Below are positions 1 to 20,529 of a stretch of 64,000 bases of DNA, piece after piece (positions within the stretch are counted from its first letter, which is position 1; every line of letters starts with the position of its first letter). Position numbers and translations under genes: made by a program. The notes under the pieces are model-generated. The model searched no databases, was not told where the DNA came from, and saw only the letters and a program-made list of their open reading frames with translations. The DNA lies in sequence record NZ_CP011600.1, one strand, 5' to 3'. Source of the stretch: a plasmid.

Positions 1-15
1 ACATTCCAGCCCTTA

Positions 16-34
16 CATCCTCCCCGGGGGGATG
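16..34. promoter_or_regulatory. C-tract/G-tract pseudo-palindrome CATCCTCCCCGGGGGGATG; candidate RcnR/NcrB-type operator about 50 bp upstream of the His-rich ORF
   Basis: Seen in sequence. Same ATCCCCC-N-GGGGGAT architecture as the sites at 2441, 5375 and 5434. Confidence 0.4.
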
Positions 35-83
35 CTAATCTTTTTATACCGTTGTCATTGTCTATTGAGGAAAGCAATCAGCG

Positions 84-455
84 ATGTACCCGATGTTTAA
101 ACGTTCGCCCCGTTATGTTCTGATGATCGTCATCATGGCCATTGGCATGATGATGTCGTCGATGGTGACGTTTGCGTCGCACGGTACAAACGGCCTGACA
201 GGCTACGAGATGAATCTGCATGACGCAGAAGTCACCATGTCAATGCAGGATCACTCTCACGATTCGGATATCCCTCAGTCTGGCCACGCAGGCCATCATC
301 AGACAGACCATTTCCATGAAACCCCTGAGCAGCCGCCCTCTGTAGAGATTTCCCTCTCTCCTGTAACAGACAGATGGTTGCCGCTTGCCGATCTTCGTAG
401 CCCGGTTAAGGCCACGGACATCATTTACCGTCCTCCCAGCATCCGCCAGATCTGA
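84..455 (+). CDS. His-rich hypothetical protein with a hydrophobic N-terminus; possible periplasmic metal-binding protein
   Basis: ORF track. N-terminal hydrophobic segment, then many His residues and HxH motifs. Preceded by a palindrome of the same type as those in the ncr cluster. Confidence 0.35.
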   Translation: MYPMFKRSPRYVLMIVIMAIGMMMSSMVTFASHGTNGLTGYEMNLHDAEVTMSMQDHSHDSDIPQSGHAGHHQTDHFHETPEQPPSVEISLSPVTDRWLPLADLRSPVKATDIIYRPPSIRQI

Positions 456-517
456 TCGCTGTTACCGGCAGTTTTTGCTGCCCGGCTTTAATCAACTTCA
501 GATTTAGCGGAGAGGCT

Positions 518-1438
518 ATGTATAAAGACTCTATCCAGGCGCGTCGAGAGATTGCGCGTAATTTCACTGCACTCAATTATCGTGTTGATCCCCTGCACTG
601 GCAGACGCTCTGCATGGGCGTTAATCGCGACCTTCAGGCCAAAAAAATGCGTCCGAATGTCCCGGTTCCTTCACGGCGTAAAGTCATTCCGTTCCTGAAA
701 ATGATGCATCAGGAAACGGGCTCGATGCTCAAAGCGATCCTTGCCTTTGGCTTTGATGGCCCCTGGACATCCAGCGGCGGTTCATTTCGCCTGGCGCGAG
801 AAATTGGGTTCGACATCGCCCACTATGCGAAAAACATTCACCACAAAAACGGGAAAGTCACCTTCCTGGAAATTGGTGCCGCCTGGGCGGGTTTTCGCGC
901 TGAGGAATGTGCCGGCCATCAGGCGACGATTTCCGGGCTTTCCGGGGAGTTCAGGGAGCAACTTGGGGAAAGCGTATTCCTGCACTTCACTAATCTCACA
1001 CCGTGGCATGCATCGCTGCCAAAAGGCGTGACTGAGCATCCTTACGTGACAGCAGCCGGGCTGGGAGCGCTGGAAAACAGAGGTGTTCAGGCAGGTGAGG
1101 TCGATATTATCTACTCCCAGGCAGCGGCCTATTTCGAACAGGATTACACGGCTTTCCTTCGCAGCGCTGCACGCCTGCTGAAAGAGGATGGCGTCCTGAT
1201 CTTCAACCATGACCCTGTTCTGGCGAGCGCGATGGATGAAGTCGCCTGGGAGCACGGACTGCGGCTGGTCAGACGTAAGCAAATGGGAGGAATGAATGGC
1301 GCGATTGCCCGTTATCACCGGCTTCGTTCGTCCCCGGTAAGTCAGATGGTCTTCCCCGGCGTAAAGCGGGCAGAGGATGAAGAAGTGGTCTGTGAATCAC
1401 TGGTTATGTCGGCGCTTCGTCGCAACGTAGAGGTGTAA
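518..1438 (+). CDS. hypothetical protein
   Basis: 306-aa ORF with no recognisable catalytic motifs. A weak G-rich loop (LEIGAAWAG) could mark a Rossmann-like fold. Confidence 0.4.
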   Translation: MYKDSIQARREIARNFTALNYRVDPLHWQTLCMGVNRDLQAKKMRPNVPVPSRRKVIPFLKMMHQETGSMLKAILAFGFDGPWTSSGGSFRLAREIGFDIAHYAKNIHHKNGKVTFLEIGAAWAGFRAEECAGHQATISGLSGEFREQLGESVFLHFTNLTPWHASLPKGVTEHPYVTAAGLGALENRGVQAGEVDIIYSQAAAYFEQDYTAFLRSAARLLKEDGVLIFNHDPVLASAMDEVAWEHGLRLVRRKQMGGMNGAIARYHRLRSSPVSQMVFPGVKRAEDEEVVCESLVMSALRRNVEV

Positions 1439-1446
1439 CGCCCGAT

Positions 1447-2250
1447 ATGTTGACGCGCAGACATTTTCTCACCACCACAGGAGCGTTGCTGATGACAACA
1501 TTACTGCCGGGGGAAACCCTGGCAGCCTCTCTGGCTGAAAAAGTCAGTGAAACATGGCAAAAAATAAACACCCGCCGCAATCAACAAGAGGCGATAACGC
1601 CGGGCTGGGTTTTGCAGTCGCTCGGGCTTAAACCTGGCTCAACTGAACTGCGAAGAGCCATTTTTGAGCTGGTCAGGCGGATACCCTATCAGCTCGGTGC
1701 ATGGAATGGCGAAAGCATGAGTCTGTTTCAGCAGGGCTTTGGCGACTGCCGTCATAAAGCCGCTGCTGCCGAACGACTGCTGACCGATGGTGGCATTACG
1801 GCAAAGCGAAAGCTGGTGCGGTTTGACTGGGCTGATTTGCCTGTACCTGCGGATATTCTGGCAATTTTGCCGCAAACACAGGGATTTCATGACACTGTGG
1901 CTTTTGAGCTACAGGGCAAAACATACCTGTTTGATGCCACCTGGGATATGGCCTTGCGCGGAGCGGGTTTCCCGGTGATGCCTTCCTGGGATGGCAACTC
2001 TGATACCTGGCCGGTGACTTCCCGGATGTCGACGCAGCAAACCGTACTAATGCCGCAGCCAGGGCAGGACATTTACAGCACTAACCAGATGAGCTGGCCG
2101 CAGCGCGAGAAAACCATGGCGTTTAATCAGGCACTGAATAACTGGCTGGAGGTCATTCGGGCTAACCGTGATGACTGGTGCACCATTATCCATAGTGATA
2201 TTGAAGCCACCCGGTTGAGCCTGAAAACCTGTCTGGGACAACTGAGTTAA
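1447..2250 (+). CDS. Tat-signal transglutaminase-like cysteine peptidase superfamily protein
   Basis: N-terminal twin-arginine motif RRHFLTTTGALLM...LAAS. Cys (GDCRHKAAAAERLL), His (GFHDTV) and Asp (LFDATWD) spaced as in the transglutaminase-like core. Confidence 0.5.
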   Translation: MLTRRHFLTTTGALLMTTLLPGETLAASLAEKVSETWQKINTRRNQQEAITPGWVLQSLGLKPGSTELRRAIFELVRRIPYQLGAWNGESMSLFQQGFGDCRHKAAAAERLLTDGGITAKRKLVRFDWADLPVPADILAILPQTQGFHDTVAFELQGKTYLFDATWDMALRGAGFPVMPSWDGNSDTWPVTSRMSTQQTVLMPQPGQDIYSTNQMSWPQREKTMAFNQALNNWLEVIRANRDDWCTIIHSDIEATRLSLKTCLGQLS

Positions 2251-2440
2251 TTCCCTTCTCGTCAGGAGGGGCTGCGCAGGGAAGCGGCGATAACACCTTC
2301 GACACTTTTTATGCTGCTTCAGGTATAACGCTGGGATACCTGAAGCTTTTTTATTTAACATCCAAGATAACAGACGAATCAGTATCCTCCTCACCCGGAT
2401 AAAGCTTGTCATTTTTTTCAGGTCCCTCTATGCTTTGAAT

Positions 2441-2457
2441 ATCCCCCTGGGGGGGAT
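2441..2457. promoter_or_regulatory. ATCCCCCTGGGGGGGAT pseudo-palindrome about 25 bp upstream of the MFS gene; candidate RcnR-family operator
   Basis: Seen in sequence. RcnR-type repressors bind TACT-G6-N-AGTA-like G/C-tract sites (established knowledge). Confidence 0.45.
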
Positions 2458-2483
2458 GTGATTTCAAACCAAGAGATTTCCTG

Positions 2484-3782
2484 ATGCTCAACATTCTTTC
2501 TAATCGTACCTATCGCCACCTGTTTATGGCACAGGTTATCGCCCTTATTGGCACCGGTCTGGCGACCGTTGCGTTAGGGTTACTGGCCTACGATCTCGCA
2601 GGTGACAGAGCCGGGGCAGTGCTGGGTACCGCGCTGGCTATCAAAATGAGCGCCTATATTCTTGTTGCGCCCGTGGCGGCGGCTTTTGCCGATAAATTCC
2701 CGCGTCGCACCATGCTGGTAACACTGGACCTGGTTCGCGCTCTCGTGGCTATCACGCTGCCTTTTGTCACCCAGATATGGGAAATCTACATCCTGATCTT
2801 CATTCTTCAGGCTGCCTCGGCGGCGTTTACGCCTACTTTCCAGGCAACTATCCCGGATATTCTTCCTGACGAACGTGAATATACCCGGGCGCTGTCTCTG
2901 TCACGTCTGGCCTACGATCTTGAAAGCGTCATCAGCCCTATGCTGGCGGCTGCACTGCTGACGGTCATGAGTTTCCACAACCTGTTTGCCGGTACGGCAG
3001 TCGGGTTCCTTGCTTCAGCAGCTCTGGTTGTTTCCGTGACACTGCCGAAGATGAAAGCGTTAACGGTCAAACGCAGCATCTATGACAAAACTACACGAGG
3101 TATGCGCATCTTCCTGAAAACGCCCAGACTGCGCGGCCTGCTGGCACTCAACATGGCCGTAGCGGCAGCGAGTGCAATGGTTATCGTCAACACCGTCGTT
3201 CTGGTTCAGGCGGACTTTGGTTTCTCACAGCGGTCTACCGCTATTGCGCTGGCCTTCTTCGGCGTGGGGTCCATGGTATCGGCCCTGGTTCTCCCCAGAC
3301 TCCTCGACAACATGAGCGACCGTATGCCGATGCTTGCAGGTACGGCGCTTTTAGTCATTGGCCTGGGGTCAGGCATTTTCCTGAAGGATTACATCACGCT
3401 GGTTGTGCTCTGGGCACTGCTGGGGGTGGGCTATTCACTTTCTCAGACACCGGGTGGTCGCCTGCTGCGCCGTTCGTCAACAGCGGAAGACAGACCGGCG
3501 CTGTTTGCCGCCCAGTTTGCACTGTCACATTCATGCTGGCTGGTGACTTATCCGCTGGCCGGATGGGTTGGTGCGGCATGGGGGACACAGGCTTCATTCA
3601 TCGCCCTGACTGTTGTGGCAACATTGTCGCTGGTCACCGCCGTACTTATCTGGCGTCCTGAGCATGAAGTGTACGCTCAGGTTCACAGCCACAAAGACCC
3701 GGAAACAAACAACGAATCGACCCATGAGCATGATTTCGTCATTGACGATGAACATCCGTCCTGGCCGAAGAAAGAGAAGTAA
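2484..3782 (+). CDS. ncrA: MFS transporter, NcrA-like putative Ni/Co efflux
   Basis: 432 aa with about 12 predicted TM helices. First gene of an MFS / RcnR-like / NicO-like arrangement. Confidence 0.7.
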   Translation: MLNILSNRTYRHLFMAQVIALIGTGLATVALGLLAYDLAGDRAGAVLGTALAIKMSAYILVAPVAAAFADKFPRRTMLVTLDLVRALVAITLPFVTQIWEIYILIFILQAASAAFTPTFQATIPDILPDEREYTRALSLSRLAYDLESVISPMLAAALLTVMSFHNLFAGTAVGFLASAALVVSVTLPKMKALTVKRSIYDKTTRGMRIFLKTPRLRGLLALNMAVAAASAMVIVNTVVLVQADFGFSQRSTAIALAFFGVGSMVSALVLPRLLDNMSDRMPMLAGTALLVIGLGSGIFLKDYITLVVLWALLGVGYSLSQTPGGRLLRRSSTAEDRPALFAAQFALSHSCWLVTYPLAGWVGAAWGTQASFIALTVVATLSLVTAVLIWRPEHEVYAQVHSHKDPETNNESTHEHDFVIDDEHPSWPKKEK

Positions 3783-3887
3783 TTTCCCAAAAAAAGACAA
3801 CGTATCAGGAGAGGATAAGCCGATAAAAAGTGTGACCATGGCGTTGATACACATTATCTTATCCCTTCCACCTGGAGAGGATAAACC

Positions 3888-4157
3888 ATGACCGTTCATG
3901 CATCACACCCTGACATTATTAAAAGACTTAAACGTGCCGCAGGGCACCTGAAAAGTACCATCCAGATGCTCGAAGATGAGAAAGCATGTCTGGATATCGC
4001 CCAGCAACTGCACGCTGTGGAAAAGGCGATAACGAATGCGAAGCGTACCTTAATTCATGACCATCTGGATCACTGCCTGGAGGATGCCCTTCATGCTGAC
4101 CACACGGAGTCTGATAAGACGCTTAGCGAATTTAAAGAGATAACTAAATATCTTTAA
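3888..4157 (+). CDS. ncrB: RcnR/FrmR/CsoR-family metal-responsive transcriptional repressor
   Basis: 89 aa with typical RcnR-like sequence (HPDIIKRLKRAAGHLKSTIQMLEDEKACLDIAQQLHAVEKA..IHDHLDHC) and conserved His/Cys metal ligands. Confidence 0.8.
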   Translation: MTVHASHPDIIKRLKRAAGHLKSTIQMLEDEKACLDIAQQLHAVEKAITNAKRTLIHDHLDHCLEDALHADHTESDKTLSEFKEITKYL

Positions 4158-4169
4158 GGCAAGCGAAAC

Positions 4170-5300
4170 ATGACTGATTTTTCCACTCTTTTACAGCAAG
4201 GCGTGGCCAATGCCTGGCTGTTCATCCCCAGCGCTATTTTGCTCGGTGCGCTTCACGGACTGGAGCCAGGGCATTCCAAAACGATGATGGCCGCCTTTAT
4301 TGTGGCCATCCGGGGAACGGTCAAGCAAGCGGTATTACTGGGGCTTGCCGCGACAATTTCTCATACGTCTGTTGTCTGGCTCATTGCGTTCGGCGGAATG
4401 TATATCAGTCAGAAATTCACTGCTGAATCAGCCGAACCCTGGTTTCAGCTGATTTCCGCCGTCATCATTCTCGGTACGGCGGCATGGATGTTCTGGCGAA
4501 CCTGGCGCGGCGAAAAGCTGTGGAAGATGGAGCAGGAAGAGGAACACAGCCACGGTCATCACGATCATGACGAAACCCGCATCATCGATACGGGCCATGG
4601 CAGCGTTGAACTCTCGATTTTCGAAGAAGGACAACCCCCTCACTGGCGTTTACGCTCGCTCAGCGGCAAGAAATGGGAAGCTCGCGACATTTCTCTGGTG
4701 ACCAACCGTGGTCCAGGGACATTTTCACAGGTATTTGATTTCGTCGAAAAAGACGGGTTTATGGAATCGGCCCTGGCGATCCCGGAGCCACACAGCTTTG
4801 ATGTTCGCCTGTCTTTAGGCCATCGCGGCCATGTGCATGATTATGATGTGGAATTCCGTGAACATGAACACGACCACGATCATTCCTCGCTGGAAGGTCT
4901 GGATGTTAATTCTCGCGAATATCAGGATGCTCACGAAAAAGCGCATGCGAACGACATCAAAAAACGTTTTGCGAATCGCAGCGTAACCACCGGACAAATA
5001 ATCCTGTTCGGCCTGACCGGCGGCCTTATTCCTTGCCCGGCAGCCATTACCGTTTTGCTGCTCTGCATCCAGGTGAAGGAATTTACGCTCGGTGCCGCGC
5101 TGGTACTGTGTTTCAGCATCGGTTTAGCGATCACGCTGGTTTCAGTGGGCGCAGCGGCGGCTTTCAGCGTTCGTCAGGCAACCAAACGCTGGAGTGGCCT
5201 GGATACGCTGGCGCGGCGGGCTCCATACTTCTCAAGCGTACTGATTGCACTTGTCGGCATTTACATGGGCTATCACGGCTGGATCGGCGTAACGAGCTGA
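4170..5300 (+). CDS. ncrC: NicO/RcnA-family nickel/cobalt efflux permease with His-rich cytoplasmic loop
   Basis: HGLEPGHSKTMMAAF motif, His-rich loop (EEEHSHGHHDHDE, HEHDHDH) and C-terminal TM helices, as in RcnA. Confidence 0.85.
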   Translation: MTDFSTLLQQGVANAWLFIPSAILLGALHGLEPGHSKTMMAAFIVAIRGTVKQAVLLGLAATISHTSVVWLIAFGGMYISQKFTAESAEPWFQLISAVIILGTAAWMFWRTWRGEKLWKMEQEEEHSHGHHDHDETRIIDTGHGSVELSIFEEGQPPHWRLRSLSGKKWEARDISLVTNRGPGTFSQVFDFVEKDGFMESALAIPEPHSFDVRLSLGHRGHVHDYDVEFREHEHDHDHSSLEGLDVNSREYQDAHEKAHANDIKKRFANRSVTTGQIILFGLTGGLIPCPAAITVLLLCIQVKEFTLGAALVLCFSIGLAITLVSVGAAAAFSVRQATKRWSGLDTLARRAPYFSSVLIALVGIYMGYHGWIGVTS

Positions 5301-5321
5301 TTTTCTCCTGTATGAATCTCA

Positions 5322-5345
5322 CGCCTGAACCCACCAACCGGTGGG
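5322..5345 (+). terminator. Rho-independent terminator after ncrC
   Basis: cccaccaaccggtggg stem followed by ttttat. Confidence 0.45.
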
Positions 5346-5374
5346 TTTTATATTTCTGAAGCCCATCATATTTT

Positions 5375-5393
5375 TATCCCCCTGCCGGGGATA
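5375..5393. promoter_or_regulatory. TATCCCCCTGCCGGGGATA palindrome; candidate RcnR-family operator
   Basis: Seen in sequence. Perfect 7-bp arms. Confidence 0.4.
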
Positions 5394-5433
5394 GGAATTG
5401 AGCTTTTATAGCCGCTCATTTATCATCGACAAT

Positions 5434-5449
5434 ATCCCCCATGGGGGAT
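5434..5449. promoter_or_regulatory. ATCCCCCATGGGGGAT perfect palindrome about 12 bp upstream of the BOF gene; candidate RcnR-family operator
   Basis: Seen in sequence. Confidence 0.45.
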
Positions 5450-5461
5450 GTAAAATTATAA

Positions 5462-5884
5462 ATGGAATCTGCTATGCAAAAACAATATTTCAGTCAGTTC
5501 GTCACCGGAGTGTTACTCACTTCGTTCATCGCCATTCCTGCTCTGGCAGCGCAAGGTGGCTTCTCCGCAGAGAAAGAGCCTGTCGTCACTGAGCACATGT
5601 ATGCCGGTCATAAAGTTCAGCAGGAGAATAGTCAAAGCCGGATTCAGATCGTATCGTCAATGCACGAAGGGGCGTGGATCACACTGGAAGGCAATGTTGT
5701 CAGCCAGCAGCAGGACGAGTGGTATACGTTCCGCGACCCAACCGGTACCATCAAAGTCCGCATCCCGCAGAAAGTCTGGAACGGGCAGCACTTCGATGCT
5801 CAGGACCTGGTACGGGTCAGTGGACCGGTAAGCCATGAAAATGATGGTTCAATTTTATATGTTGCAGTTATCAGCAAACCCTAA
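5462..5884 (+). CDS. BOF (YgiW/YdeI) family periplasmic OB-fold protein, possibly NcrY-like
   Basis: Signal peptide plus C-terminal OB-fold segment typical of the YgiW/BOF family (WYTFRDPTGTIKVRIPQKVWNG). Confidence 0.6.
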   Translation: MESAMQKQYFSQFVTGVLLTSFIAIPALAAQGGFSAEKEPVVTEHMYAGHKVQQENSQSRIQIVSSMHEGAWITLEGNVVSQQQDEWYTFRDPTGTIKVRIPQKVWNGQHFDAQDLVRVSGPVSHENDGSILYVAVISKP

Positions 5885-6084
5885 AACACAATTCTGACGG
5901 GCTATGTTTTTTTATATATATAGTTCGTCAACCAAACGTCCGCTTCTCGCTCTTAGCGGACATTAGCATAGGCTATTTACCATAACGCCGCATTACGCGC
6001 ACCGCCCAGACTGACTCAGCGCGTTTCTGGCATATCCCCGGTAAAACAAGTAACAAACCACCCGAAAATGAACACCAGAAACGC

Positions 6085-7665
6085 GACTTAAGAATCTACC
6101 CTATGAATGGATATGCACTCAACCGAATCGATCTTGGTTTCAATCTTTTTTATCGGGATCAGGCTTCTTTTTAGGTAACTTCGGGGGCTTAACTTGCTGA
6201 TGACTTTGCGTTCGGCGCGTAAGCCAGGGATGGTCAGCTTTAGGTTTAACATAGTATTTTGAGCGTAAATCAATACGGGCATTATCCACTCGTTCATGGA
6301 CACTCTTTTCATCATCCAGTGGTATAGGCTCCGGGCCATCAACATACTTTTCCCAGCCCAGCGCTTTCCCGTCATACAGAACGTTAATTTCACCGTCAAA
6401 GTTCTCGCATACAGTAACAACCGAATGCCTAAGTCGATATCCCCGGCCCTCACTGCGTACCTGAAACGCACTGCTTTTGTACTGGAAAGTGAGATTTTTA
6501 GACAGAACGCGCTTCGCCTGTAGGCTGAAGATATAACCCAGTTCCTCTTCAGAATGGTGCACATCAAGATGAGCATTATCAGTAGTACGAGGCGACGTAG
6601 CGAACCGGTTGTTATAGGCTTCAATAAAGGTCGGCAACCATGCATTTGCTGTTTCAATATCACTGATATTCTGAAGCCGCATTTCTTTGACCAGCCTGTC
6701 CTGTAGTGTCTGATTGGCGCGCTCTACCCGCCCTTTTGCCTGCGGGCTGTTGGCATGGATTGGCTCGATGCCCAGTGTCTTTATCGCACGAGTGAACTGG
6801 GTCAGCTCACCTTCCCGCTCTGGGTTATTTACCCTGAATATACTGTGTCTATCAGAGTAGAGAGCGAGCGGTACGCCATGATCATTAAGGTAACCCCGGA
6901 GGGTTTCCATGTAAGCCCGGGTTGTTTCAGCAGGCACAAAACGCAACGCCATCAACGCACTGGTGGCATCATCAATGAAAACGATCAGTGTACATCTGGG
7001 GCCTCGATTTTCAAACCAGTCATGAGGTGAGCCATCAATCTGGATCAGTTCACCGTAAGATGGTCGTCGCATGCGGCGTTGATATATACGGGCAATTTTA
7101 CGACGGCGTTCACGCCATAACCCCTCTTCTATCATCCACTTTCTGAGAGTTTCAACGGATAAAGATAAACCGTGTATCTCGCGCAATTTTTCGCACGCAA
7201 ACGTAGGTCCAAAATCAGCGTAACGGCCTTTGAGGAGTGAAATTACTGTTGCTCTGAATTCAGTAGAAAAGGAATTATTAGGACGCTTTCCACGTCGGTG
7301 GGAAACCAGACCAGAAGGCCCTTCATTTCTATACCGTTGCACCAGACGTTTAACCTGCCGAATAGAAATGCCAATGCGTGCCGCAGCTTGTTCCTGAGTA
7401 ATATGTCGATTAATTGACTCCTGAATAATCTGAAGTCGGTGGAGTTCCTTATGACTCATCGTAACAGTCTCTTTGATCATGAAAAATCCCCCAGAGAATT
7501 GTCTGGGGACATTTTAGAATGGTTCAAAGGGGACATTACAGCTTGGTGTTAACACATAGCTGACTTCTCCTTGCCTTTCGGCAGGTAAGCGGCTAATCTG
7601 TTGGTGTCTAGTCATACAGATTAAGCCTCGGGTTAATTGAAAAAATTACTCGGGGCTTTCTGCTT
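6085..7665 (-). mobile_element. Insertion sequence, ISNCY family (IS1202 group)-like; boundaries approximate
   Basis: Single 446-aa transposase with N-terminal HTH and a DDE integrase core. Weak direct similarity between the flanks at about 6040-6080 and 7670-7715. Inverted repeats could not be located with confidence. Confidence 0.45.
6140..7480 (-). CDS. DDE transposase (integrase core domain), ISNCY/IS1202-group-like
   Basis: N-terminal HTH (ISIRQVKRLVQRYRNEG), then an rve-type DDE domain (VFIDDATS, DRHSIF, E residues). Length matches IS1202-group transposases. Confidence 0.75.
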   Translation of the reverse strand: MIKETVTMSHKELHRLQIIQESINRHITQEQAAARIGISIRQVKRLVQRYRNEGPSGLVSHRRGKRPNNSFSTEFRATVISLLKGRYADFGPTFACEKLREIHGLSLSVETLRKWMIEEGLWRERRRKIARIYQRRMRRPSYGELIQIDGSPHDWFENRGPRCTLIVFIDDATSALMALRFVPAETTRAYMETLRGYLNDHGVPLALYSDRHSIFRVNNPEREGELTQFTRAIKTLGIEPIHANSPQAKGRVERANQTLQDRLVKEMRLQNISDIETANAWLPTFIEAYNNRFATSPRTTDNAHLDVHHSEEELGYIFSLQAKRVLSKNLTFQYKSSAFQVRSEGRGYRLRHSVVTVCENFDGEINVLYDGKALGWEKYVDGPEPIPLDDEKSVHERVDNARIDLRSKYYVKPKADHPWLTRRTQSHQQVKPPKLPKKKPDPDKKD

Positions 7666-20150: not shown

Positions 20151-20529
20151 AATCACCGGCGAGCAGGACGTTCGCCAGTGGCCTTTTTTAATCCCTCTCA
20201 TTTATCCCCGCTTCCCGTGGTCAGCCCGCTGATGCAGTACACCATTCATTACCCACATGGTTATCCCCCGTTTCTGTGGATAATCAACCTCTAGCAATGC
20301 GGACTGACTACCGGAACAACGCATCCTGTGTCATCCCCAAAAGCCGTACAGTCCTCCCCTGACCCGCTGCCCCCCCTAAAAATTCTTTCACACCTGGACA
20401 GTCCGGCACTATCGGAAAAAATGACCAGACAAAGAGCCCCTGAGACTCTATTTATTTTTGATGAAAATACAGCCAATTAAACTCCGGACGCACGATTGAT
20501 CTTGAAACCTCAGTAAAACAAGAAATAAT

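Follow-up and report, generated by a model that had tools for sequence, protein, structure and literature searches.

The C/G-rich palindromes of the ncr cluster are very probably operators of the nickel-responsive repressor NcrB, of the type-1 kind, in which ATCC/GGAT arms enclose a 9-bp C/G-rich centre. The operator of ncrA is known already, and the extension of the regulon to a His-rich operon and to ncrY is real but modest. An earlier sequence-only reading of the window (the whole 64-kb stretch of plasmid DNA analysed here) had listed four such palindromes, all of which we found where it had placed them. Its interpretation of them as operators stood in that the ncrA site is identical to the published NcrB operator and the His-rich and ncrY sites are conserved with their genes; the ncrA operator, however, is not new, because it matches the published one base for base (PMC3046157). 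Our literature search found no earlier report of operator sites before the His-rich operon or ncrY.

The NcrB repressor and the efflux genes

2484-3782, plus strand: ncrA, MFS nickel efflux protein (Pfam MFS_1, E = 5e-39)
3888-4157, plus strand: ncrB, 89-aa nickel-sensing repressor of the CsoR/RcnR family (PF02583, E = 1.3e-21)
4170-5300, plus strand: ncrC, NicO/RcnA-type Ni/Co efflux protein (Pfam NicO, E = 3.6e-49)

The sole PF02583 gene in the 64-kb window is ncrB, whose product RefSeq names 'nickel-sensing transcriptional repressor NcrB'. ncrA is called nirA/ncrA by both RefSeq and AMRFinder, and the ncrC ORF is intact (376 aa); ncrC was derepressed in a published delta-ncrB strain. Pfam agrees with the genes proposed from the sequence alone (PF02583, MFS, NicO and BOF), and the description of NcrB as an RcnR-family member holds at the level of PF02583 but not for an RcnR-like type, since its C-H-C residues are those of CsoR and InrS. 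C34, H59 and C63 of NcrB align with C36, H61 and C65 of M. tuberculosis CsoR, the top NCBIfam match is RicR (E = 6.2e-14) with RcnR weak (E = 2.9e-4), and the nearest solved structures are CsoR 2hh7 (E = 3.7e-11) and InrS 5fmn. RcnR, in contrast, senses metal through an H-C-H-H residue set. E. coli RcnR shares with NcrB the PF02583 family and the apo-repressor logic, its release being triggered by Ni or Co. Its operators, too, are of type 1: short inverted arms flank a G/C tract, and one promoter region is served by two sites (PMC7055735), but the operator in the rcnR-rcnA intergenic region reads TACT-G6-N-AGTA where NcrB sites have ATCC/GGAT arms. The metal sensed by CsoR and RicR is Cu(I), that of NcrB is Ni (PMC3046157); CsoR operator sites have been described as G-tract-containing pseudopalindromes (PMC3902906).

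Occurrence of the motif in the window

The sites, with scores from a weight matrix trained on sites from other genomes only, are the following (no strand is assigned to any of them):

17-33: His-rich operon operator ATCCTCCCCGGGGGGAT, single candidate site, 25.3 bits, overlapping the predicted core promoter
2384-2400: candidate distal ncrA site ATCCTCCTCACCCGGAT, weak (3.9 bits, at or below noise), ending 5 bp before the -35
2441-2457: proximal ncrA operator ATCCCCCTGGGGGGGAT, the published NcrB site, 27.3 bits, 26 bp 5' of the ncrA ATG (2484)
3861-3882: candidate weak NcrB site ATCCCTTCCACCTGGAGAGGAT before ncrB, with TTCC-N9-GGAT at 3866-3882
5376-5392: candidate distal ncrY operator ATCCCCCTGCCGGGGAT, 17.6 bits, ending 5 bp before the -35
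5434-5449: candidate proximal ncrY operator ATCCCCCATGGGGGAT, a perfect 16-mer with a 4-nt centre, starting 7 nt past the -10

By chance, 0.00 exact palindrome matches were expected (100 shuffles) and 0.14 with one mismatch allowed. The 64-kb window has exactly four ATCC-N9-GGAT matches (17, 2384, 2441 and 5376), each of them in an ncr promoter region, and all six TCC-N9-GGA cores of positions 1-6000 fall within the 780 bp of intergenic DNA. Each site in the window keeps this core except 5434, where the spacing is N8. Across 50 shuffled windows the top matrix score was 18.0 bits and the mean 11.2, and neither the matrix nor the core scan found comparable sites in the 64-kb window beyond the ncr promoter regions.

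The ncrA promoter and the element before ncrB

2406-2434, plus strand: ncrA promoter from the promoter scan (TTGTCA, 17 bp, TATGCT)

Binding of NcrB to the 17-bp inverted repeat ATCCCCCTGGGGGGGAT was demonstrated by EMSA competition, DNase I footprinting and a bacterial one-hybrid assay; the footprint spans -4 to +25, 1 mM Ni abolished binding, and the S1-mapped start, 44 nt 5' of the ATG, places the operator at +1 to +17 (PMC3046157). The scanned promoter agrees with this start. The determinant studied, ncrABCY of 'Leptospirillum ferriphilum UBK03' (Zhu et al., 2011; PMC3046157), carries the identical 17-mer in the same place before the same gene, enterobacterial ncrABC proteins have been reported as 100% identical to it (PMC8545094), and the other sites of the window share the ATCC/GGAT arms and C/G-rich centre with its ncrA operator. 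The UBK03 study describes one site only, and the regulation of ncrY is absent from its text (PMC3046157). The HindIII site at 2402 was probably the start of the cloned UBK03 fragment, which would then have lacked the entire His-rich operon as well as the distal site (2384-2400).

The distal site is a fifth one, absent from the list in the sequence-only reading. It lies 57 bp 5' of the proximal site, in the same layout as the ncrY pair, and the same position across L004, L005, L007, L008 and L011 reads ATCCCCCCCACCAGGAT or similar.

From the apparent lack of a site before ncrB-ncrC it had been concluded that these genes are only co-transcribed with ncrA, which conflicts with a published NcrB-repressed promoter; in addition, we found an invariant TCC-N9-GGA element at 3866-3882. 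Zhu et al. described before ncrB a separate promoter, repressed by NcrB and induced by Ni, with no obvious inverted repeat; the weak element may account for it. The element at 3861-3882 abuts a -10-like TATCTT (3855-3860) and overlaps the ncrB ribosome-binding site, and its TCCACC and GGAGAGGAT are invariant across nine loci, a conservation that may instead reflect the ribosome-binding site. It has a TCC-N9-GGA core yet scores 11.0 bits, at noise level. In L093, a distant cluster, a ATCCACCTGGAGAGGAT site with an identical centre lies at 777-793, in a divergent region that is non-coding.

The His-rich operon

33-41, plus strand: predicted extended -10 (TGcTAATCT), directly 3' of the operator (promoter model A)
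84-455, plus strand: His-rich protein gene, 123 aa, first of a three-gene operon
518-1438, plus strand: methyltransferase-like gene, 306 aa, second in the operon (weak Methyltransf_11 match, E = 8.5e-5, residues 181-229)
1447-2250, plus strand: transglutaminase-fold gene, 267 aa, third in the operon, predicted Tat-exported Cys-His-Asp protein

The site ATCCTCCCCGGGGGGAT differs by one mismatch from ATCCCC-N5-GGGGAT and lies 50 bp 5' of the ATG at 84. Under model A the operator would sit within the promoter spacer; TG-n-TAA-nn-T does not vary among the eight loci of alignment A5, nor in a nine-locus anchored comparison that adds P. lundensis L026. Alternatively, under model B, an invariant TACAnT, truncated by the window edge and ending at position 5, would place the operator at about +5 to +21. 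The two models fit the operon equally well.

The His-rich ORF had been called unannotated, but RefSeq has an entry for it (hypothetical protein WP_004196359). The N-terminus of the protein is a hydrophobic segment for export or anchoring, and the C-terminal part has an RPP motif; the protein also contains a His cluster, and it has no match in Pfam or NCBIfam. Homologues returned by the protein-database search were named only from Enterobacterales, with 59-100% identity for full-length matches, and a 45% relative in P. lundensis was found by the locus scan. It is also weakly paralogous to the gene that opens the HupE sub-operon, and H57, H59, G67, H71, D75, H76, H78 and R116-P117-P118 are invariant across both paralogue groups. 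The methyltransferase-like gene keeps its position in every cluster compared. For the 267-aa protein, the twin-arginine leader rests on a weak TAT_signal match and the RefSeq name 'Tat pathway signal sequence'; its homologues carry PF01841, C101 and H148 are invariant, and D163 is nearly so. Foldseek with its AlphaFold2 model (pLDDT 85) returned transglutaminase-like and papain-like cysteine enzymes, e.g., TglA, 3isr, PeiP, NAT and LapG.

Metal resistance after deletion of the His-rich ORF had been suggested as a check on its role; a published E. cloacae delta-operon2 mutant, however, is as nickel-resistant as the wild type, and the primer arms, once mapped, show that this deletion takes site 1 (17-33) and all three genes of the operon. 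Membership in the regulon is therefore not proof of a role in resistance. Our best guess is that the operon would be an accessory nickel-handling module of the cell envelope.

The ncrY promoter

5327-5348, plus strand: intrinsic terminator after ncrC (9-bp stem then T run; terminator scan)
5398-5426, plus strand: predicted ncrY promoter (TTGAGC, 17 bp, TATCAT)
5462-5884, plus strand: ncrY, predicted periplasmic BOF / YgiW-YdeI OB-fold protein (Pfam BOF, E = 4.5e-19)

The terminator, conserved in alignment A3, makes ncrY a separate transcription unit. The plus strand of positions 1-6000 has only two sigma-70-like matches, of which the ncrY promoter is one, with hexamers conserved in the same alignment, and the ncrY product is assigned to NirD/YgiW/YdeI by NCBIfam and named 'nickel resistance OB fold protein NcrY' by RefSeq. 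The distal site is kept in L002, L004, L005 and L007, and P. lundensis retains the distal-plus-proximal layout although ncrY has relocated. The centre of ATCCCCCATGGGGGAT is one base shorter than that of the characterised operator (4 versus 5 nt); orthologues of this site have the usual 5-nt centre (ATCCCCCCTGGGGGGAT in L004 and L007).

Conservation and related systems

Clusters from Escherichia, Enterobacter, Klebsiella, Pluralibacter, Yersinia, Dickeya, Phytobacter and Pseudomonas retain the His-rich and ncrY sites. All nine clusters compared have the site ahead of the His-rich gene, over a range of 100% down to 45% identity of the His-rich protein. E. coli L002, Dickeya L008, Phytobacter L009, Yersinia L011 and P. 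lundensis L026 carry it as a perfect ATCCCC-N5-GGGGAT, and mean column identity is 0.96 in the arms, 0.80 in the centre and 0.61-0.69 in the flanks. The 79 loci with NcrB orthologues come from alpha-, beta- and gamma-proteobacteria; in 51 of them a site lies at most 250 bp before an ncr or His gene, and 28 have none at the threshold used; 56 of the 64 motif matches lie upstream of ncr or His genes, the other eight elsewhere in 1.13 Mb. Rhizobiales orthologues of NcrB (62-73% identity) have the motif directly upstream. The comparison of sequences shows selection on the sites other than that of ncrA, and these sites travel with their genes and with NcrB orthologues. The resistance plasmid that carries the ncr cluster is widespread in Klebsiella and Enterobacter.

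Distant relatives of the operon (L093, L095 and L096; transglutaminase-like protein 40-60% identical) have a PF02583 gene in each cluster, and ATCC-N9-GGAT stands before a small His/RPP gene or before the regulator heading the operon. The Providencia locus among them, L096, has RcnR-type TACT-C6-N-AGTA sites before one PF02583 gene and NcrB-type sites before the MFS and His-rich genes; it serves as a specificity control, with two operator types each beside its own regulator.

According to the available part of a study of the Mesorhizobium nickel-tolerance operon nreAXY (PMC12724321), NreA is a Ni-released repressor of the CsoR/RcnR family with the same class of operator motif as NcrB, the type-1 consensus being TATCCYCtccrgGRGGATA, in which mutations showed the TCC and GGA ends to be essential and the centre tolerant. 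The NreA operator lies in the -35/-10 spacer, as model A puts the site of the His-rich operon, and the 17-mer of site 1 is listed for Mesorhizobium C089B as a candidate operator upstream of nreA2. Unlike NcrB here, NreA heads its own operon, with a leaderless transcript. That part of the study characterises a single operator at the nreAXY promoter, with a similar candidate before nreA2; it reports no distal-plus-proximal pairs and does not mention His-rich, transglutaminase-like or BOF genes for the NreA system (PMC12724321).

Alternative explanations

The palindromes might act as hairpins, either terminators or stem-loops that protect the mRNA at its 5' end, rather than as protein-binding sites. 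The terminator scan flags 16-34 and 2442-2455 as terminator-like, and at the proximal sites the mRNA would begin with the 16-17 nt of the palindrome, which fold into a stable hairpin. We consider this very unlikely, as NcrB binding at 2441 was directly demonstrated (PMC3046157), a conserved terminator distinct from the palindromes (GGGCCCGCAT..ATGCGGGCCC, then Ts) stands about 45 bp 5' of site 1, and another sits after ncrC, ahead of the ncrY sites. Moreover, fold energies are no better than shuffled (z-scores 0.23 and -0.24), the arm letters are identical in alpha-, beta- and gamma-proteobacteria with no covariation, and the distal sites keep ATCC/GGAT with the self-complementarity of the centre gone (ATCCCCCCCACCAGGAT), which fits a protein motif and not a stem. 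It is somewhat easier to imagine, though still improbable, that only the proximal ncrA site works and that the His-rich and ncrY sites are inherited copies of a duplicated promoter module, no longer usefully bound by NcrB here. The mismatch in site 1 (T at position 5), the 4-nt centre at 5434, the lack of a nickel phenotype on deletion of the His-rich operon and the loss of the neighbouring HupE sub-operon in this lineage would agree with it. Nevertheless, the T variant is common to four lineages, site 1 scores 25.3 bits, and the candidate nreA2 operator is the same 17-mer, the Mesorhizobium consensus having Y at that position (PMC12724321). As for the short centre, the same 16-mer before ncrA of Cedecea davisae L027 is the only motif match of that locus with one mismatch allowed, and further 4-nt variants precede ncrA in Yersinia L011 and ncrB in Devosia L057. 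In the decaying copy L006, which has no intact genes annotated, the sites have degenerated, which argues that they do not persist without selection.

Other proteins of the CsoR/RcnR family are present in the hosts of the plasmid, and one of them, a chromosomal RcnR or FrmR, could bind the sites, or these could be members of a general family of repeats with no link to metal control. We give this hardly any credence: RcnR operator arms differ (TACT/AGTA; PMC7055735) and form a separate motif in the Providencia island, while the NcrB motif occurs nowhere else in the 64-kb window and is nearly confined to ncr promoters in the 1.13 Mb of other genomes.

A model for the NcrB regulon

With the palindromes taken as NcrB operators, metal-free NcrB would bind them and block RNA polymerase, and Ni(II) binding would release it. 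Three promoters would respond: that of the operon for the His-rich, methyltransferase-like and transglutaminase-like proteins, by one strong site overlapping the core promoter; that of ncrA, by a weak distal site just 5' of the -35 and a strong proximal site at +1 to +17; and that of ncrY, by a distal-plus-proximal layout like that of ncrA. We infer the occupancy by NcrB of the sites other than that of ncrA, as well as where the promoters of the His-rich operon and of ncrY lie. On this evidence from sequence comparison, the extended regulon would add a conserved three-gene operon and ncrY to the NcrB nickel switch.

Known and probable NcrB operators at the ncr promoters

Seven genes on the + strand occupy the first 6 kb of the window (RefSeq names in brackets):

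Genes of the ncr cluster in the window
84-455, + strand, His-rich protein, 123 aa, from ORF prediction (hypothetical protein)
518-1438, + strand, methyltransferase-like protein, from ORF prediction and Pfam
1447-2250, + strand, protein with a twin-arginine leader, 267 aa
2484-3782, + strand, ncrA, MFS (nirA/ncrA)
3888-4157, + strand, ncrB, PF02583, E = 1.3e-21 (nickel-sensing transcriptional repressor NcrB)
4170-5300, + strand, ncrC, NicO (nirC/ncrC)
5462-5884, + strand, ncrY, BOF (nickel resistance OB fold protein NcrY)

The sequence-only reading had pointed to four palindromes as likely operators, one before the His-rich gene (17-33, hereafter site 1), one before ncrA (2441-2457) and two before ncrY (5376-5392 and 5434-5449), and all four are present in the sequence. 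Three of them match ATCCCC-N(3-7)-GGGGAT exactly, a pattern for which shuffled sequence gives 0.00 matches, and site 1 has one mismatch to it. The form ATCC-N9-GGAT occurs exactly four times in 64 kb (at 17, 2384, 2441 and 5376), each time in a promoter region of the ncr cluster, and all six TCC-N9-GGA cores in positions 1-6000 lie within the 780 bp of non-coding DNA. With a weight matrix trained on sites of other genomes alone, the sites at 2441, 17 and 5376 scored 27.3, 25.3 and 17.6 bits, the top score of 50 shuffled windows being 18.0. Given the rarity of the motif in shuffles and these scores, the palindromes far exceed chance. The site at 5434-5449 has an 8-bp centre between its arms, a variant that recurs in Cedecea and Yersinia, upstream of ncrA, and in Devosia, upstream of ncrB. 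The cognate repressor is encoded in the same cluster by ncrB, the sole PF02583 gene of the window.

One of these sites is already known. The ncrABCY determinant was cloned from 'Leptospirillum ferriphilum UBK03' by Zhu et al. 2011 (PMC3046157), who mapped the ncrA transcription start 44 nt 5' of the ATG and found that purified NcrB shifts the ncrA promoter fragment, that an unlabelled 17-bp inverted repeat competes, that NcrB protects -4 to +25 from DNase I at this promoter and that 1 mM Ni abolishes the interaction (PMC3046157). Window 2441-2457 is letter-for-letter the published 17-mer, and the window promoter TTGTCA-17-TATGCT (2406-2434) puts +1 at 2441, in agreement with the published mapping, such that the operator covers +1 to +17. 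In Enterobacter, whose ncrABC proteins are reported to be 100% identical to those of the UBK03 determinant, deletion of ncrB derepressed ncrC and raised nickel resistance (PMC8545094). In view of the published binding to the identical 17-mer and the effect of the ncrB deletion, the operator status of 2441-2457 is neither a hypothesis nor new, but an experimentally defined fact.

A further site upstream of ncrA (2384-2400), absent from the list of the sequence-only reading, is weak in every genome; it keeps the left arm and the C tract, and its right half is reduced to GGAT. A HindIII site (2402-2407) lies between this distal site and the -35 element, and the published clone pNR21 is a 4.0-kb HindIII fragment (Zhu et al., PMC3046157). 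If pNR21 began there, neither the distal site nor any of the His-rich operon would be on it, and their absence from the published description would be explained.

Class of the regulator and of its operator

Naming the repressor as RcnR-family, as the sequence-only reading did, holds in the broad CsoR/RcnR sense and fails for RcnR proper. M. tuberculosis CsoR gave the best alignment to NcrB (E = 3.7e-11), and InrS aligned too; C34, H59 and C63 of NcrB correspond to CsoR C36, H61 and C65. Among the NCBIfam models, RicR scores far above RcnR, whose E-value of 2.9e-4 marks a weak match that falls well short of the curated cut-off. The metal-sensing residues defining RcnR are H-C-H-H. An RcnR-type sensor was rejected since NcrB carries the CsoR-type C34, H59 and C63 instead, and an RcnR-type operator was rejected as well, the arms in the window being ATCC/GGAT and not TACT-G6-N-AGTA. 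True RcnR-type sites were found in Providencia rettgeri DSM 1131 (L096) alone, where one island has two PF02583 genes and two operator types: the RcnR-type pair TACTCCCCCCTAGTA and TACTACCCCCCAGTA (TACT-C6-N-AGTA; L096 9143-9177) precedes the first PF02583 gene, and the MFS gene and the His-rich gene have NcrB-type sites upstream, which makes this island a natural specificity control.

The NreA operator of Mesorhizobium (PMC12724321) is TATCCtctcgggggGGATA, with the consensus TATCCYCtccrgGRGGATA; it is a type-1 operator placed in the -35/-10 spacer, its TCC and GGA ends are essential, and its centre tolerates change. A second candidate operator of the same genome, upstream of nreA2, CATCCTCCCCGGGGGGATA, contains the 17-mer of site 1. 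Judged by this 17-mer and the NreA consensus, a T at position 5, as in site 1, is normal variation for the motif. The four ATCC-N9-GGAT sites of the window share the NcrB/NreA type-1 design, a dyad with ATCC and GGAT arms (at the least TCC and GGA) around a C/G-rich centre of 9 bp.

Conservation of the sites and layout of the promoters

Diverged copies of the cluster were compared, namely those of an E. coli chromosome (L002, 88% DNA identity), of Enterobacter roggenkampii (L004), K. pneumoniae (L005) and Pluralibacter (L007; 85-88%), and of Yersinia massiliensis (L011), Phytobacter ursingii (L009), Dickeya dadantii (L008) and Pseudomonas lundensis (L026), in which the His-rich protein is 80%, 64%, 63% and 45% identical, respectively. 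The site before the His-rich gene was found in every copy compared, as a perfect ATCCCC-N5-GGGGAT in L002, L008, L009, L011 and L026. Over nine copies, mean column identity was 0.96 for the 12 arm positions, 0.80 for the five central positions and 0.69 and 0.61 for the flanks; the site is thus conserved with its target gene while the neighbouring non-coding DNA drifts. The pair of sites before ncrY is retained in L002, L004, L005 and L007, and in the one visibly decaying copy, without intact annotated genes (L006), the sites have degenerated.

The promoters of ncrA and ncrY have the same architecture. The distal site (2384-2400; 5376-5392) ends 5 bp 5' of the -35 element, which is followed by a 17-bp spacer and the -10 element, and the proximal site begins 6 or 7 nt after the -10 element (2441; 5434), the distance between distal and proximal sites being 57 and 58 bp; in the predicted ncrY promoter, the -10 element ends 7 nt before the site at 5434. 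In P. lundensis, ncrY was relocated to the other end of the cluster and the whole arrangement was retained, with distal ATCCCCCCGCCCTGGAT, 5 bp, TTGCCC, 17 bp, TATTAT, 5 nt and proximal ATCCCCCTAAGGGGGAT.

The His-rich operon has one operator site, flanked by two sets of invariant letters that allow two predicted promoters. The TG-n-TAA-nn-T right after site 1 could be an extended -10 element, with the operator filling the spacer as for NreA; alternatively, the -10 element could be a TACAnT hexamer about 12 nt before site 1, cut by the edge of the window, which would put the operator at about +5 to +21, as at ncrA. A repressor bound at either operator position could block transcription, and the two models fit equally well. 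An invariant block, AATACAAGACTTTACA, is also present in all nine clusters about 13-15 bp 5' of the His-rich operator (2986-3003 in L001, a related plasmid, ending at window position 3). It holds (A/T)TACA repeats about 10 bp apart, and in Providencia L096 TTTACA alone is retained at the same distance from the operator; possible roles of the block are those of a -10 element, of an activator site and of a UP-like element.

The palindromes are very probably NcrB operators and comprise one known site and three well-supported additions, or four with the distal ncrA site. By their sequence and conservation, the added sites would place ncrY and a conserved three-gene operon under nickel control, an assignment that we consider well supported. 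In the literature on ncrY and nirABCD, we found no report on the regulation of ncrY or of the upstream operon, and a literature search by protein accession retrieved nothing.

The motif and the operon accompany the regulator

NcrB relatives were scanned in one genome per species, giving 80 loci with 62-100% identity from alpha-, beta- and gamma-proteobacteria, 79 of them usable. A site with at most one mismatch was present within 250 bp upstream of an ncr/His gene in 51 of the 79 loci. Palindromes of this kind might also belong to a dispersed REP-like repeat family, the alternative that the sequence-only reading had named. However, 56 sites in the 79 loci (1.13 Mb) lie upstream of ncr/His genes and just 8 of the 64 matches lie elsewhere, and the 64-kb window has no further copies. 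The match ATCCCCCGTTTCTGTGGAT (20263-20281), with arms carrying one mismatch and a 7-nt centre, has nothing else in its support and is probably due to chance. A reading of site 1 as the terminator of an upstream operon was rejected, since the ancestral arrangement has a separate conserved terminator about 45 bp upstream. A search of four cluster loci against Rfam at the gathering threshold gave nothing relevant for a riboswitch or other known RNA.

The operon was also traced through distant relatives of its Tat-exported protein (40-60% identity) on four contigs, of which three were informative; the fourth, a fragmentary metagenome contig (L094), gave a truncated PF02583 match alone and no motif match. 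In L093, L095 and L096, the gene order small His/RPP protein, ~300-aa protein, transglutaminase-like protein recurs with a PF02583 gene in the same cluster, and each contig has the motif:

ATCC-N9-GGAT sites in distant clusters
L093, 5415-5431, upstream of the small gene
L096, 5615-5631, upstream of the small gene
L095, 4887-4903, upstream of the regulator heading the operon

The 5' neighbour of the His-rich operon in the ancestral cluster, the HupE sub-operon, had no NcrB site before it in the nine Enterobacterales clusters examined, which share another conserved promoter region there, GATACA-N18-TGTATC. P. lundensis alone has a site, ATCCTACCCCCCTGGAT, just before the first gene of this sub-operon (L026 2198-2214). 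In Phytobacter ursingii, an extra perfect site, ATCCCCCCGGGGGGGAT, lies upstream of the sub-operon (L009 5395-5411; L024 1624-1640), 16 bp before a small unannotated Cys/Trp-rich ORF (ATG at L009 5427, about 65 aa).

The ncrB promoter

From the lack of a palindrome before ncrB-ncrC, the sequence-only reading had concluded that these genes are co-transcribed with ncrA. Published data contradict this: Zhu et al. described another promoter upstream of ncrB that is constitutive by itself, is repressed in the presence of ncrB, is induced by Ni and lacks the 17-bp repeat (PMC3046157). The ncrA-ncrB spacer (105 bp, 3783-3887) is highly conserved in nine genomes and nearly invariant in its ncrB-proximal half. 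There, ATCCCTTCCACCTGGAGAGGAT (3861-3882) includes TTCC-N9-GGAT, abuts a -10-like TATCTT and overlaps the ribosome-binding site of ncrB, which could account for part of its conservation. The matrix score of this element is 11.0 bits, at noise level; in a distant cluster (L093), ATCCACCTGGAGAGGAT, with the same centre, lies in a divergent non-coding region. A weak NcrB operator at 3861-3882 is unproven yet plausible, and such a candidate may explain an NcrB-dependent promoter that has no obvious site.

GGAGAGGATAA occurs twice in the spacer, at 3808-3818 and again at 3874-3884, where it acts as the ncrB ribosome-binding site, and a complementary CTTATCCCTTCC lies at 3858-3869. In the modelled fold, pairing of the first copy with CTTATCCCTTCC would free the real ribosome-binding site; the RNAalifold stem of GGAGAGGATAAG with CTTATCCCTTCC has no compensatory changes, and the fold exceeds shuffled sequence by only 1.1 sd.

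Products of the His-rich operon

Three features unite the His-rich protein with the first gene product of the HupE sub-operon: a hydrophobic segment at the N-terminus, a cluster of conserved His residues and an RPP motif at the C-terminus. In the Tat-exported protein, C101 and H148 are invariant among homologues and D163 is nearly so; PF01841 is found on its homologues, the window protein itself being below the Pfam threshold. Its AlphaFold2 model (pLDDT 85) gave Foldseek matches to cysteine enzymes of the transglutaminase-like and papain-like kinds (TglA, 3isr, PeiP, NAT and LapG), with low TM-scores of about 0.3. Residues and model alike point to a transglutaminase-fold enzyme with a Cys-His-Asp triad. 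A sequence search of solved structures returned nothing useful for the methyltransferase-like or the Tat protein.

The sequence-only reading had proposed nickel assays of a His-rich gene deletion, and a published mutant already bears on this. The homology arms of delta-operon2 map to L001 2765-2814 and window 2251-2300, and from these positions site 1 and the complete three-gene operon are deleted. Nickel disc diffusion and survival at 8 mM Ni did not differ between this mutant and the wild type, but delta-ncrABC was sensitive (PMC8545094); nickel resistance in these assays thus does not require the His-rich operon. Membership of the regulon and contribution to resistance are separate questions, and the absent phenotype may be due to the assay condition (rich medium, aerobic, high Ni) or to that lineage having lost the HupE sub-operon. 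Tentatively, and with more doubt than confidence, we suggest that the His-rich operon may be a previously unrecognised nickel-induced cell-envelope module, to which the paralogous HupE sub-operon may belong; for instance, the exported His-rich protein might bind periplasmic Ni and undergo processing or cross-linking by the Tat-exported cysteine enzyme.

History, spread and significance of the cluster

The ancestral cluster had ten genes in four units: the HupE sub-operon (small His/RPP protein, HupE_UreJ_2 and a 229-aa protein), the His-rich operon, ncrA-ncrB-ncrC and ncrY. The lineage of the window lost the three genes of the HupE sub-operon, with the junction inside their terminator (window 1-20; L001 2549-3000), and in their place are chrB fragments and fragments of a different MFS gene, followed by ISKpn6 and KPC-3. 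In the related plasmid L001, the cluster adjoins ISKpn6 and KPC-3, and the remainder of the window is a conjugative-plasmid backbone. More than 200 plasmid records from Klebsiella, Enterobacter, Escherichia, Citrobacter and Serratia carry the cluster with an identity of at least 99% across most of its extent.

In assemblies of unrelated bacteria, the cluster was also seen on a 4.5-kb contig of Marinomonas aquimarina (L013) and a 766-bp contig of Streptococcus infantis (L022), with NcrB 100% and 94% identical, respectively; very recent transfer or contamination is the likely source. The same question of origin arises for the UBK03 determinant, which is nearly identical to enterobacterial plasmids. 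RefSeq annotates ncrC in the 100%-identical plasmid L001 as two partial pseudogene pieces; the window ORF (4170-5300) is uninterrupted, with 376 aa, and the pseudogene call is probably an annotation artefact from the variable His-rich loop. In the E. coli search, about 1,150 further records match a small part of the query with 95-99% identity, mostly on chromosomes; the 166 bp just before the IS1202-like transposase gene (window 5935-6100) head this group, and the two matches listed (98%) have no feature annotated beneath.

The repressor, the motif and the mechanism were already established, and the gain is incremental in this sense. The ncr cluster confers high nickel resistance (PMC8545094) and sits on very widely spread carbapenemase plasmids, and the full set of NcrB promoters offers ready targets for nickel biosensor parts. 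Conservation of the His-rich module under the putative control of CsoR/RcnR-family regulators extends over Enterobacterales, Pseudomonas and metagenomic lineages of unidentified origin, and the module also travels on epidemic KPC plasmids. The sites before it would mark three conserved proteins as nickel-regulated, which opens a way to learn what they do; we regard the His-rich operon, found together with genes of this regulator family in distant lineages as well, as the most useful lead.
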